64,000 nt of DNA from an uncultured Chlamydiae bacterium (lineage in GTDB: Bacteria > Chlamydiota > Chlamydiia > Chlamydiales > JAJFMB01): positions 864,001-928,000 of the forward strand of contig CAVOJR010000001.1 in NCBI GenBank assembly GCA_963696295.1. Reading direction: 5' to 3'. A program made the position numbers and the translations under genes. The notes beneath the pieces are model-generated. The model was not told the DNA's origin, did no database searches, and worked only from the letters and a program-made list of their open reading frames with translations. Positions 9,036 through 40,863 of this stretch are shown here, in pieces. Positions within the stretch are counted from its first letter, which is position 1, and each line of letters starts with the position of its first letter.

Positions 9036-9284
9036 ATGAGACTTTTATCAGATAAAGAAATGAAGAATGTGATAGGCGGTATTCAAGCAGCTTACACACC
9101 TCCCACACCCCTACAAGTCCTCCAATATTTATTTCTGTCACTTAACCCTAAAACAAGCGCAACAGTTCAAGCCGAATCAAACAAAATATTCAACTCACTC
9201 GTTGCAGATGGCGTTGCACCATTACAAGCCGGTGGAAGAACAGTAGAAATTATAGATTCCGAATACTTTCCCCCCACTAAGTAG
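9036..9284 (+). CDS. Small protein with a double-glycine (bacteriocin-type) leader
   Basis: MRLLSDKEMKNVIGG fits L-12 S-11 E-8 M-7 V-4 G-2 G-1. AAGGA SD, own promoter and a downstream hairpin. Confidence 0.75.
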   Translation: MRLLSDKEMKNVIGGIQAAYTPPTPLQVLQYLFLSLNPKTSATVQAESNKIFNSLVADGVAPLQAGGRTVEIIDSEYFPPTK

Positions 9285-9299
9285 GATATTCTTCATCAA

Positions 9300-9333
9300 A
9301 ACCGGAGCGGGGAACTCCCCACCCCGGTTATTT
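9300..9333. terminator. Hairpin between convergent genes, probable terminator
   Basis: AACCGGAGCGGGGA-AC-TCCCCACCCCGGTT followed by ATTT. Confidence 0.5.
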
Positions 9334-9691
9334 CTAAGCCCTTTGATTGAGTTCTATAGTAAAATGCAACCCCTCTTCATGAGTTAACGTTAGATTAATG
9401 CTGCCTGTGAAAAATTCCTGAAAAGGACTCCACTTTTGCAAGTCGCGGCTGAAGAGCAGAGTCTCTCCCTCACATTTCACAAAACAGTTTTTTTTCACTT
9501 CAAGCAAGTCATCGGAAAGCGAGAAACATTCCCCTTGCAAAGAGAACCGGAAGGGCATTTTTGTACCCCTCCTGACAATCCACTATGGCTCCCAGGGCAA
9601 ACTGCTCCTCTGCAACCTCCTGCAAAGGCACCACTTGCTCTTCGGCGGTAAGCAGTGCCGTGCACAAAAAATATAAAATCAGCTTTTTCAT
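9334..9691 (-). pseudogene. Secreted hypothetical protein split by one frameshift
   Basis: Signal-like MKKLILYFLCTALLTA with a GGAG SD. Removing one G from GAGGGGTACAAAAATG (about 9566-9569) joins it to ORF 9334-9558 (…CQEGTKMPFRFSL…). Confidence 0.6.
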
Positions 9692-9738
9692 CTTTTTCTC
9701 CTTTACTACGTTTGTAGTATTTAAGTTTAAAAAAAACC

Positions 9739-10737
9739 TCAGAAAATCCAAAATTTGCCGAGGGTGATGGAAACAGCGCCCATGGCCGCGAGGGCAACCT
9801 TCAGCCATTTTAAGCGCGCTGTTCGAGTCTCTTCTATTAGAGGCATCAATCGCTTCACCAAAGCCCCCTTTGCGGCAAAGCCGGTCAAGAGGGGCGGCAT
9901 GCGGGCCTCCCTTGCCGCCTTGAGGATGGCCGAGGCCAGCGCGAGGGGGGAGATTTGGTAGCGGCTGACCTTCTCATCGCAGGCTCTCTCTTGCCTTTGC
10001 TCCAGCGCTTTGAGCCAGAGGCCTGCCGGCACCCACCAGAAAAGCTTTGAAAGAAAGGCCGAAAGCAATCGGACAGCCCCGTCAAAAAAGCGAAGGTGCT
10101 CCAGTTCATGCGCCATAATCGCCTCGAATTCCTCTTGGGTGAGCCGCCCGATCAGCTGCGTGGGAAAGCAGATCCTTCCGGCATAAGCGCAAGGCCCCTC
10201 TATGTCGTCTGATAAAAGTAAAGGAACCCCCTTTATCTTCGCTAAGAGGCGGGGGTTTTGCACAGGCCTAAAACAGGGCTTTGCCCTTTGCAGCCACAGG
10301 CTGAGCTCCTTTTTAGCCCGGACCATCCTGCAGCACCACAGCGATGCCAGCAGCAGGGAAATACCCCCTGTGAAAAGCACAATCCCTTTAAGAAGAGCCT
10401 GAGGCAGCATCATGGCGGCGATATCGGCAAGGGTAAAGGTCTGGCCGCTCTCAATGGAGAAGGTAATCGCAGAACCCGGAAACCACACCAGCACCGAAAG
10501 CATCCTCGTGCCTGGGGGCTGCTCCAGCGGATTGACCTGCTGCAAAAGCGCCCAGTTGCCGAAATCGTAGAGAAAGGGATCGATAGCCAATTTTAAGAGA
10601 GGAATGCAGAGCAAAAACGCCTCGATTCTCGCGCTCCTCATGCGCAGCATCAGCAGGAGTTGAATAAGAATAACCCCTGTCACGAAGGAGAGAAAGCTGT
10701 TCACAATCAGATTTAAAGCAAAAGTCCAAACAGTCAT
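9739..10737 (-). CDS. BlaR1/MecR1-like M56 family membrane zinc metallopeptidase (no penicillin-binding domain)
   Basis: TM helices, AIMAHELEH, FWWVP and QERACDE motifs. The ATG at 10737 is preferred because the TTG at 10773 lies in the -35 box. Confidence 0.88.
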   Translation of the reverse strand: MTVWTFALNLIVNSFLSFVTGVILIQLLLMLRMRSARIEAFLLCIPLLKLAIDPFLYDFGNWALLQQVNPLEQPPGTRMLSVLVWFPGSAITFSIESGQTFTLADIAAMMLPQALLKGIVLFTGGISLLLASLWCCRMVRAKKELSLWLQRAKPCFRPVQNPRLLAKIKGVPLLLSDDIEGPCAYAGRICFPTQLIGRLTQEEFEAIMAHELEHLRFFDGAVRLLSAFLSKLFWWVPAGLWLKALEQRQERACDEKVSRYQISPLALASAILKAAREARMPPLLTGFAAKGALVKRLMPLIEETRTARLKWLKVALAAMGAVSITLGKFWIF

Positions 10738-10744
10738 GCCGATC

Positions 10745-10773
10745 ACATTACTACAGATGTAGTATATCGTCAA
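10745..10773 (-). promoter_or_regulatory. Sigma70-type promoter containing a BlaI/MecI-type operator
   Basis: TTGACG-N17-TAATGT on the minus strand; palindrome TACTACA-GA-TGTAGTA (10749-10764) carries the TACAnnTGTA box. Confidence 0.7.
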
Positions 10774-10855
10774 CAGAATTCGATGCTTGACAACGGAATA
10801 AAATTTTGATAGGTTCCTTTCCTAAATAATCAGACTCTAATCAGGAGGTCCTTTT

Positions 10856-39589: not shown

Positions 39590-40125
39590 AAGTCGAGGAG
39601 CTCACAAGCCTTCAGCGGCAGGAGATGAAGCGGATCATCGAAGCGCTTCTATTTGCCTCATCAGAGCCCCTTCCCCTCAAGAAAATCCACCAGATCGTCA
39701 AAAGCTACACAGAAGTCAGCCTCGGCACCCTCGCTGTCCTCCTCGACGAACTCGCAGAGGACTACCGGGAAGAGCGGCGCGCCTTCAAGCTCGAAGAGAT
39801 TGCCGGCGGCTTTATTTTGCGCACCTATCCCCAATACCACACTTACCTAAGGCAGCTGTTTCCGAACCGCGGCAAAGAGCGCCTTTCCCAAGCCGCCCTG
39901 GAAGTCCTCGCCATCATCGCCTTTCGCAAGCCCATTACCCGCGCCGAGATAGAGTCTATCCGCGGTGTCGACTGCTCCGGCATGATCCATACTCTGTTAG
40001 AACGGGAGCTCGTGGAGATCACGGGCAGGCTCGAGGTGCCCGGCCGCCCTTCGCTCTACAGCGTCACCAGGAAGTTCCTGCTTCATTTCGGACTCTCACA
40101 AGATTCTATTAATAATGGACAATAA
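39574..40125 (+). CDS. scpB: Segregation and condensation protein B
   Basis: IEALLFAS, LSQAALEVLAIIA..PITRAEIE.IRGV and PGRP.LY motifs. Confidence 0.96.
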   Translation: MESVLEVEELTSLQRQEMKRIIEALLFASSEPLPLKKIHQIVKSYTEVSLGTLAVLLDELAEDYREERRAFKLEEIAGGFILRTYPQYHTYLRQLFPNRGKERLSQAALEVLAIIAFRKPITRAEIESIRGVDCSGMIHTLLERELVEITGRLEVPGRPSLYSVTRKFLLHFGLSQDSINNGQ

Positions 40126-40170
40126 ATTATTTGTTTTATTAAATAATTAGTTATATGCTATACTAAGTTT

Positions 40171-40253
40171 AGTAAGAAAAGAGTTTCTGGGTTTAGGGTT
40201 GCATGTTAATCCTAAACTCCAAGAGGGCCCGGCCTTAAATGGCCGGGTTTTTT
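40171..40253 (+). ncRNA. Candidate small RNA (two hairpins, own extended -10)
   Basis: TGCTATACT at 40156-40164; G-U-containing stem at 40189-40219; terminator at 40228-40253. Confidence 0.35.
40228..40253 (+). terminator. Rho-independent terminator
   Basis: CCCGGCC-TTAAAT-GGCCGGG-TTTTTT. Confidence 0.85.
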
Positions 40254-40318
40254 GTGCCTAATTAGATTCCATTAAGAAATAACTCACTTAATATATTCTG
40301 ATAATAAATTTAATTTTG

Positions 40319-40327
40319 TGTTATAAT
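40319..40327 (+). promoter_or_regulatory. Extended -10 promoter for the GG-leader gene pair
   Basis: TGTTATAAT (TGn-TATAAT), 45 bp upstream of the ATG at 40372. Confidence 0.6.
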
Positions 40328-40371
40328 GAATTTAATGAGAGAAATCTCATGCTATAAAAAAGGGGGTTTAT

Positions 40372-40626
40372 ATGGAAATTTTATTGGACACAGAATTAAG
40401 AGAGGTTCGAGGGGGTAATAAAACCCATGAAGAATTGTTACTTTTTGCTCGTGAGGTTCTTGGAAAGCCAACGGGTGAATTAAACCTAAAAGACGCTCGG
40501 AGTCTTCTATTCCTTTCTTATGCAGAAATGCTAAATTCAGATATTCCTTCTCCTGAACCAGTACTGTTTCACTATGATAACACAAACCGTTATCTAACCG
40601 CGTTAGAAAAATCATTCTCAAAATAA
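40372..40626 (+). CDS. Small protein with a double-glycine leader
   Basis: MEILLDTELREVRGG (L-12, E-8, L-7, V-4, GG); AAGGGGG SD. Confidence 0.75.
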   Translation: MEILLDTELREVRGGNKTHEELLLFAREVLGKPTGELNLKDARSLLFLSYAEMLNSDIPSPEPVLFHYDNTNRYLTALEKSFSK

Positions 40627-40641
40627 TAATAAGGGGGTTTT

Positions 40642-40863
40642 ATGGAAAAGTTAATTGACTCAAAGTTAAAAGTAATTATTGGCGGTGGTAATCATTATTC
40701 TCAAAAAGCTTTGGAAGAGGCAAAGGCCGCTGAAGCAGTCATAAAAGAGGATTATACGAGAGCTATTAAGAATGGTCATAAATATGATTCTGAATATTAT
40801 TATTTCACTATAGATTATTTGAATTTCTATATTTCTGATCTAGTGCATGTGAATAATAGTTGA
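40642..40863 (+). CDS. Small protein with a double-glycine leader
   Basis: MEKLIDSKLKVIIGG (L-12, L-7, I-4, GG); same AAGGGGGTTT...ATGGAAA context as the upstream gene. Confidence 0.7.
   Translation: MEKLIDSKLKVIIGGGNHYSQKALEEAKAAEAVIKEDYTRAIKNGHKYDSEYYYFTIDYLNFYISDLVHVNNS

Follow-up and report, generated by a model that had tools for sequence, protein, structure and literature searches.

What machine, if any, do small chlamydial proteins with double-glycine leaders serve when no transporter gene lies beside them? Three open reading frames (ORFs) of this kind, ORF1, ORF2 and ORF3, occur at two loci of a 64,000-nucleotide stretch of the chromosome of an uncultured Chlamydiae bacterium (GenBank assembly GCA_963696295.1, contig CAVOJR010000001.1, positions 864,001 to 928,000 of the forward strand), which we call the window. 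A first-pass annotation, made from the letters alone, had seen in them part of a genome-wide set of peptides exported by a C39-peptidase ATP-binding cassette (ABC) transporter. We find that the three ORFs belong to a leader family dispersed over the chromosome, that the source genome encodes a single transporter of this type with an intact catalytic triad, and that transporter and leaders co-occur across genomes of the phylum. Positions are those of the window, unless preceded by G000:C1, which marks chromosome coordinates of the source genome.

A family of leaders dispersed over the chromosome

The coordinates, leaders and Cys-free cores first ascribed to the three ORFs, all on the plus strand, were confirmed. 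ORF1 (9036..9284) encodes a precursor of 82 residues with a 67-residue core of net charge -1, ORF2 (40372..40626; leader 40372-40416) a precursor of 84 residues with a helical 69-residue core of charge -2, and ORF3 (40642..40863; leader 40642-40686) a precursor of 73 residues with a 58-residue core of charge -3. All three leaders have the Gly-Gly end and hydrophobic residues at -12, -7 and -4, so that the consensus proposed for them stands except for Glu at -8, where ORF3 has Lys; the LahT protease tolerates Lys at this position, as described in the passages cited from PMC6363468. The 15-residue ORF1 leader (9036..9080; L-12, E-8, M-7, V-4) is the only one of the three to pass the TIGR01847 model, and does so narrowly (16.0 bits for a cut-off of 15.7).

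A matrix built from the three window leaders only found 8 ORFs at 16 bits or more, and the further members that the first-pass annotation had expected from such a scan of small ORFs were indeed above background (5 beyond the training set, compared with 0 in the reversed genome, a control with about half as many candidate starts). When the matrix was retrained on 13 leaders, 16 ORFs scored 22 bits or more and the next best 14; this cut is circular, since the 13 chosen leaders are the training set, and the fair test is to leave each leader out in turn. Under that test the window leaders scored 19.1, 25.4 and 19.0 bits against control maxima of 13.7-14.6 (16,604 reversed-genome starts), and 12 of the 16 leaders, the three window ones included, beat all 16,604 controls, the other 4 being beaten by one. 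Dropping the Gly-Gly requirement added two variants ending in GQ and one in AG. The genome-wide set of diverse candidate cargo behind a conserved leader is thus borne out, with 16 double-glycine ORFs and 3 variants, 19 family ORFs in total. The variants lie at G000:C1:2176258-2176729 and 119031-118807, each with a Shine-Dalgarno sequence (SD), and the AG end recurs in two ORFs of another genome (G366).

Six of the Gly-Gly ORFs form an array (G000:C1:1666325-1667612) and the other ten are dispersed over nine loci, at G000:C1:513510, 873036, 904372 with 904642, 1453756, 1618591, 1993672, 2092880, 2174523 and 2532603. Over the 16 leaders, which are 14 to 19 residues long, Leu stands at -12 in 15, Leu or Met at -7 in all 16 and Val, Ile, Leu or Thr at -4 in all 16. 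The dispersed leaders differ from their nearest copy at a quarter to a third of their nucleotides and nevertheless keep -12, -7, -4 and the Gly-Gly end. The extended -10 motif TGnTATAAT was found 5' of 10 of the 19 family ORFs, compared with 54 of 1905 long ORFs, a background that includes operon-internal genes, and 34 of the 557 long ORFs with AT-rich upstream DNA. Two array genes (within G000:C1:1666900-1667780) are near-identical duplicates, and in the same interval lie all 4 chromosomal copies of an 11-nt motif, each upstream of an array gene.

A single C39 exporter operon

The first-pass annotation had also looked to a C39-peptidase ABC transporter with HlyD and TolC elsewhere in the genome. 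In the assembly, which is 97% complete in 2 contigs, the profile search found exactly one C39 domain, and it belongs to a four-gene operon that encodes HlyD, TolC, ABC1 and a second ABC protein, ABC2 (G000:C1:1667804-1674871), about 0.77 Mb from the window ORFs. The operon stands head-to-head with the six-ORF array and is transcribed away from it. Its best NCBIfam matches are TIGR03794, TIGR01844, TIGR03796 and TIGR03797, of which TIGR03794, TIGR03796 and TIGR03797 make up the NHLM trio of Haft et al., and HlyD (199 bits, cut-off 156) is the sole gene of that trio above its threshold. The expectation of C39 export is supported, and the comparison first drawn with colicin V gives way to a cassette that, by its best matches, is of the NHLM/NHLP type. 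As for the transporter and modifying genes that the first-pass annotation had not seen nearby, no peptide exporter or modifying enzyme was found among the 20 other window ORFs covered by a Pfam scan; the genome does have a LanM-like gene beside one family member, described below.

The closest solved relative of the ABC1 C39 domain is the LahT protease (E 5.7e-43), and the triad C31/H105/D121 is intact and aligns with C27/H101/D117 of LahT, an enzyme that requires leader positions -12, -7 and -4 (PMC6363468, passages on the leader). When the C39 domain was modelled with ORF1 residues 1-35, the predicted complex scored 0.81, compared with 0.01 for the best of 3 controls; on this scale 116 of 157 solved pairs attain the mark, as do 2 of 215 mismatched ones. 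Runs agreed in at least 77% of their contacts, the pLDDT of the partner was at least 66, and the predicted interface takes in leader residues 1-4, 6 and 9-17, Gly14-Gly15 among them, together with the Cys and His of the catalytic triad. Since a like complex has been solved (6mpz), the prediction shows likeness rather than binding, perhaps a memory of that structure.

The cores

The 16 cores are 27 to 79 residues long and contain no Cys in 798 residues where about 10 were expected (P ~4e-5); Ser and Thr number 2 to 16 per core. All six array cores are cationic (+2 to +5), and 7 of the 10 dispersed ones, including those of the window, are negative. Given net charges of -1, -2 and -3, the term "bacteriocin-like" of the first-pass annotation fits the window cores poorly. 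The frames of the dispersed cores stay open over 33 to 79 codons within AT-rich DNA. The 16 cores are unrelated to one another, save for a single duplicate pair and three links that are weak. The cores of the three window ORFs are mutually unrelated, as first described; for that of ORF2, pairwise comparison gave a weak paralogue, located at G000:C1:1618591 (z 3.8 for the core, reached in 2 of 300 shuffles; one pair among 171), and the two ORFs share an identical 17-nt upstream stretch. A helical-hairpin kinship of ORF3 with two other cores fell outside the top 10 of the 171 pairs and was dropped. The ORF2 core was modelled as three helices with a pLDDT of 66. The best ESM Atlas entries for ORF1 (0.86) and the ORF2 core (0.94) were all hypothetical proteins; their recognition values (2262 and 1750) are below the reliable level and they were not used. 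Scanning metagenomes for ORF2 yielded 558 pattern matches, not one of which was confirmed.

The only variant of the window cores seen is a 242-nt contig that spans 40346-40558 with 97% identity and comes from an RNA library of fresh water. This allele is one contig of one study, with 4 of 6 aligned differences listed, of which one is silent in the leader and three change residues in the core. A 29-nt loose end continues collinearly (21 of 29 nucleotides alike) and adds six more residue changes by hand comparison, so that in sum the leader has 1 silent change and the core 9 changed codons, all nonsynonymous, in an open frame. Such a pattern is compatible with a constant tag joined to a payload that changes fast. 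With 5% of words present in the RNA run, the lack of coverage of scpB and ORF3 carries no weight, and the contig is not proof of transcription.

A degenerate LanM-like gene beside one family member

An 860-residue LanM-like protein is encoded on the minus strand at G000:C1:2532688-2535270 (L004:5689-8271), 85 bp before the family member at 2532603, which has its own promoter-like site. It scores 285 of the 304 bits of TIGR03897. In CylM numbering, placed by alignment to homologues, the equivalents of K274, D347, N352, D364, E366 and R506 are kept, and GDxH, H349, T512 and both Zn-ligand Cys motifs are lost, each of these motifs being kept in 42 to 53 of the 55 top homologues. One orthologue, 39% identical (P0004), has the same losses except for a Ser at T512. 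In CylM, according to the passages cited from PMC4550811, the residues of the lost class serve phosphate elimination and ring closure, the T512A variant yields phosphorylated, undehydrated peptide, and H349 is also needed for efficient turnover. Judged by these residues, a cyclase-dead enzyme beside Cys-free cargo is a coherent combination; the protein could be a leader-directed kinase, and could be inactive. Because of the loss of H349, it may be dead or non-catalytic. No LanM match was found in the 9 other genomes of the short-leader transporter clade described below.

Distribution in the Chlamydiota

Relatives of ABC1 were found in at least 63 of 400 Chlamydiota genomes from many families, and in 0 of the 29 genomes of a family with 1.0-1.2 Mb chromosomes. 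The count of 63 is a floor, since the transporter search took a stricter first look and one genome (G005), left out of phylum-wide scoring, is not in it. Genomes with ABC1 most often carry long NHLP precursors, which were found in 51 of 400 genomes, 36 of these 51 being transporter-positive by hand count. NHLP precursors number up to 13 per genome and are often scattered, and some of them have a full LanM, Cys motifs included, in their vicinity.

A short-leader profile built from 20 leaders, 14 of them from the source genome and so biased towards it, matched in 23 of 400 genomes. Excluding the source and the 6 training genomes, matches occurred in 9 of 56 transporter-positive genomes, all in small leader ORFs (4 short, 5 long), and in 7 of 337 other genomes, never in a small leader ORF; related genomes in these counts are not independent. 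With the same biased profile, about 1 to 6 short-leader ORFs were found per genome elsewhere, compared with 16 to 19 in the source genome. As to the conservation of the Gly-Gly motif in homologues, related leaders of other Chlamydiota genomes do keep GG, some ending instead in GA or AG. Candidate cargo lies on contigs other than that of the transporter in three genomes (G248, G226 and G068).

A tree of 59 ABC1 proteins was built by a quick method, 4 of 42 chlamydial loci without a usable ABC1 being omitted. In it, 10 chlamydial transporters, the source copy among them, form a clade (support 99) that is nested among transporters from NHLP-bearing genomes, as judged from cargo labels that we assigned at the genome level. 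Short-leader ORFs accompany 8 of the 10 clade transporters, and the other two genomes are assemblies of 410 and 140 contigs. Short leaders also occur outside the clade in G118 and G115, and likewise in G144 and G226, which are not in the tree. Two genomes of the same family as the source, 81% and 94% complete, lack both a C39 domain and small leader ORFs, and therefore yield no alleles; in one, tsp-scpA-scpB is present without the peptide pair. For these reasons the ORF2/ORF3 pair looks like a lineage-specific insertion.

Several cargo-like ORFs of other genomes differ in kind. In G248 (L086:1225-1557) and G068 (L108:1486-1689), Gly-Gly leader ORFs have cores that begin like Flp pilins (Pfam Flp_Fap, E 0.0013, under the cut-off and for the G248 ORF only); these could be cores of pilin origin that have acquired the leader, or else prepilins that have diverged. 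Tandem arrays of at least 4 leader ORFs with Gly/Ala/Lys-rich or Ser/Gly-rich cores occur in G226 (L107) and G114 (L059), those of G114 having long NHLP-like leaders. Five genomes encode DUF4135-like proteins of about 500-550 residues without the LanC half (L130, L133, L129, L131 and L135), which could be truncated by locus or contig ends.

Local context of the window ORFs

ORF1 lies in an AT-rich gap after an M29 aminopeptidase-like gene, and ORF2 and ORF3 in another after scpA-scpB; the GC content of ORF1, ORF2 and ORF3 is 0.41, 0.37 and 0.30, compared with 0.47 for the chromosome. The TGnTATAAT site and hairpins attributed to each locus were recovered. The ORF1 site (8930..8938, 106 nt 5' of the ORF) is a consensus match only and was missed by a generic promoter scan, which detected the promoter-like site common to ORF2 and ORF3 (40319..40327, 53 nt 5' of ORF2); ORF3 starts 15 nt past ORF2 and is without a TGnTATAAT of its own. 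An SD precedes each gene, as first stated, although that of ORF1 is weak (AGGA). A terminator-like hairpin stands 3' of ORF1 (9300..9329; z -3.6, 0 of 200 shuffles) and another hairpin 3' of ORF3 (z -2.6 against shuffles). Two hairpins 3' of scpB, the second with a U tail (40189..40253; z -3.95), separate scpAB from the ORF2/ORF3 pair and were missed by the terminator scan. The sites and hairpins given with coordinates are all on the plus strand.

Two S41 tail-specific protease paralogues (36688-38763 and 44181-46163) lie on either side of the ORF2/ORF3 region. Convergent with the pair, on the minus strand, is an ORF for an acidic 80-residue Asn/Ser-rich protein (41164-41406) with no Pfam or NCBIfam match. 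Between a helix-turn-helix gene and recJ (46917-48026), ORF starts repeat every 219 nt, which suggests a tandem repeat. The window encodes a TLC nucleotide transporter by Pfam scan, and the source genome has an OmcB-like match, below cut-off, that none of 14 control genomes has; both agree with an origin in the chlamydiae.

Comparison with known systems

Colicin V and the short double-glycine class II bacteriocins combine a 15-residue leader and an unmodified core with export through an ABC protein, HlyD and TolC, in colicin V out of a two-membrane cell. The present system differs from that type (TIGR01847): one exporter would serve at least 16 cargoes scattered over the genome, there is a second ABC subunit, immunity genes were not seen, and the window cores are anionic. 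The NHLM/NHLP cassette, in the account cited from Haft et al. 2010 (PMC2887384), likewise has, within a single operon, HlyD together with an ABC1 that bears the C39 domain and an ABC2 that is free of protease, and its cargo leaders end in Gly-Gly; here, the leaders are 14 to 19 residues long, the cores are long and Cys-free, and TolC lies inside the operon. NHLP (TIGR03793, best E 0.78) and Nif11 (PF07862, best E 0.13) leaders were not found in the source genome, nor was YcaO, and none of its 11 radical-SAM matches is near a family locus. LahT and its substrates LahA1-9 (Bobeica et al. 2019, PMC6363468; PDB 6mpz) resemble the system in the matching triad, a 13-residue motif with -12, -7 and -4 that suffices, and tolerance of diverse cores, although they come from a Gram-positive lanthipeptide cluster with clustered Nif11-type precursors, as those passages describe it. 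The prochlorosin ProcA/ProcM system (PMC10783134, as cited) shares with it the many scattered precursors, common Gly-Gly leader, hypervariable cores and one LanM-family gene. ProcA leaders are of the Nif11 type and the cores are Cys-cyclised, whereas minimal leaders and Cys-free cores are found here, and the LanM-like protein, unlike ProcM, is without Zn ligands and elimination residues. A class II lanthipeptide assignment does not apply, with 0 Cys in 16 of 16 cores and a LanM-like protein that has lost the dehydratase residues GDxH, H349 and T512 as well as the Zn ligands of the cyclase. By analogy, the family would work like a system of peptidase-containing ABC transporters (PCATs) and is built like the prochlorosin system. 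It is a new version of a known export system, with candidate payloads larger in number than the window shows.

The retrieved text of Dharamshi et al. [quoted passage not shown] A 2026 paper (PMC13229535) reports, in the part cited, that a chlamydia of Hydra has a proteusin cluster, and in the cited part of Haft et al. the "chlamydia group" names only Victivallis (PMC2887384). In the literature outside subscription papers, and as far as the passages cited go, no account was found of chlamydial cargo that is dispersed and carries short leaders.

Proposed mechanism and alternative explanations

We propose that the three window ORFs are cargo of the one distant type I machine. A local consensus promoter would drive each locus, the ABC1 C39 domain would grip the leader by its hydrophobic side chains at -12, -7 and -4 and cut past Gly15, and the unmodified core would pass through ABC1/ABC2, HlyD and TolC across both membranes to the host compartment. 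Recognition at these positions, cleavage after Gly15 and export in one step are likely, and we infer that ABC1 and ABC2 act as a pair. The leader would be a portable address tag, copies of promoter and leader having spread over the chromosome while the cores change fast, and the cores may form a variable conflict arsenal: the six cationic array cores might target membranes of co-resident bacteria, and the mostly anionic dispersed cores, those of the window included, protein targets of host or competitors. Given export, a conflict role is slightly favoured; for an arsenal acting in the host compartment, taken as a whole, we see about an even chance, the role being the least certain part. Toxin, signal and host effector, the functions named in the first-pass annotation, all stay candidate labels that may apply.

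Several observations weigh against this proposal. Both ABC proteins score below their NCBIfam cut-offs (ABC1 728 for 853, ABC2 488 for 709), and TolC is a weak match (E 1.9e-12) also under its cut-off. An array gene has ATT as its start codon, and in two family members the leader ends in GQ; these may be signs of decay. No immunity-like gene was evident at the family loci on inspecting ORF maps, in which small immunity genes are hard to recognise. When each of the three ORFs was searched against 5.8 billion proteins, nothing came back beyond the proteins of the window itself, a Pfam scan of the three gave no family, and the AlphaFold model of the ORF2 core, made without alignment, matched no PDB entry with an E-value of 0.001 or lower, so that there is no pointer to a target. 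The absence of silent core changes in the ORF2 allele also fits a drifting core.

Drift of this kind is at the heart of an alternative in which the array alone is functional: insertion sequences would have carried pieces made up of promoter and leader to the dispersed loci, those of the window included, reading would run on into AT-rich DNA, and selection would not act on the cores there. The orphan window cores, the transposase or recombinase genes that adjoin 3 dispersed loci, the same-family genome in which tsp-scpA-scpB lacks the peptides and the allele just mentioned agree with it. We consider it unlikely, because long Cys-free frames stay open in AT-rich DNA, the allele included, the diverged leaders keep their key positions and the ORF2 core was modelled as a helical fold. 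It is very improbable that the N-termini are not C39 leaders at all, being for instance type III secretion signals or the starts of plain AT-rich ORFs: the motif is short and two of the three window leaders fail TIGR01847, yet the leave-one-out scores of the window leaders exceed all controls, six members adjoin the transporter, and none of the 7 matches in transporter-negative genomes is a small leader ORF.

The precursors could also be RiPPs modified in trans, the LanM-like protein recognising the leader that they have in common, much as ProcM acts on dispersed ProcA peptides. Since kinase residues are kept and those of phosphate elimination and ring closure lost, Ser and Thr of the cores would be phosphorylated, at most dehydrated, before export, which is compatible with the same machine. 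The adjacency of the gene to a family member, the orthologue with matching losses, the product of CylM T512A and the Ser/Thr-bearing, Cys-free cores speak for this, and the loss of H349, the lack of LanM matches in the other clade genomes and the separate promoter-like site of the adjacent ORF speak against it; on balance we think it rather improbable. Hardly more than a slim chance attaches to exported pheromone-like signals, of density or development, among chlamydiae in the inclusion, as ComC is for ComA. PCATs do export quorum peptides (PMC6363468, as cited) and the 11-nt motif confined to the array may be a regulator site, but sixteen mostly unrelated cores of 27 to 79 residues are numerous and long for pheromones, and no sensor kinase or regulator was seen beside family loci on inspection, made without a family scan of each neighbour.

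Implications

Chlamydial secretion is usually discussed in terms of type III effectors. Tentatively, and with more doubt than confidence, we suggest that in a lineage of environmental chlamydiae an NHLM exporter of RiPPs became a general route for mini-proteins: the long NHLP leader would have shrunk to a 15-residue tag and recruited new, unrelated folded cores across the chromosome for delivery to the host compartment, parallel to type III secretion, a cyclase-dead LanM perhaps phosphorylating some without forming rings. The degenerate LanM is in any case a candidate leader-directed kinase. Some amoebal chlamydiae protect their host by a mechanism described as unknown in the passages cited (PMC9666466; PMC6520448). 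One chlamydial peptide exporter now has 16 to 19 named candidate cargoes, and its relatives occur in many families of the phylum. Family-based annotation likely misses such ORFs because they are small and orphan; with a list of peptides and predicted cut sites, interference between co-infecting microbes becomes directly testable. If the proposal is true, these ORFs would encode secreted mini-proteins of a kind so far unstudied, made by a bacterium living inside host cells.

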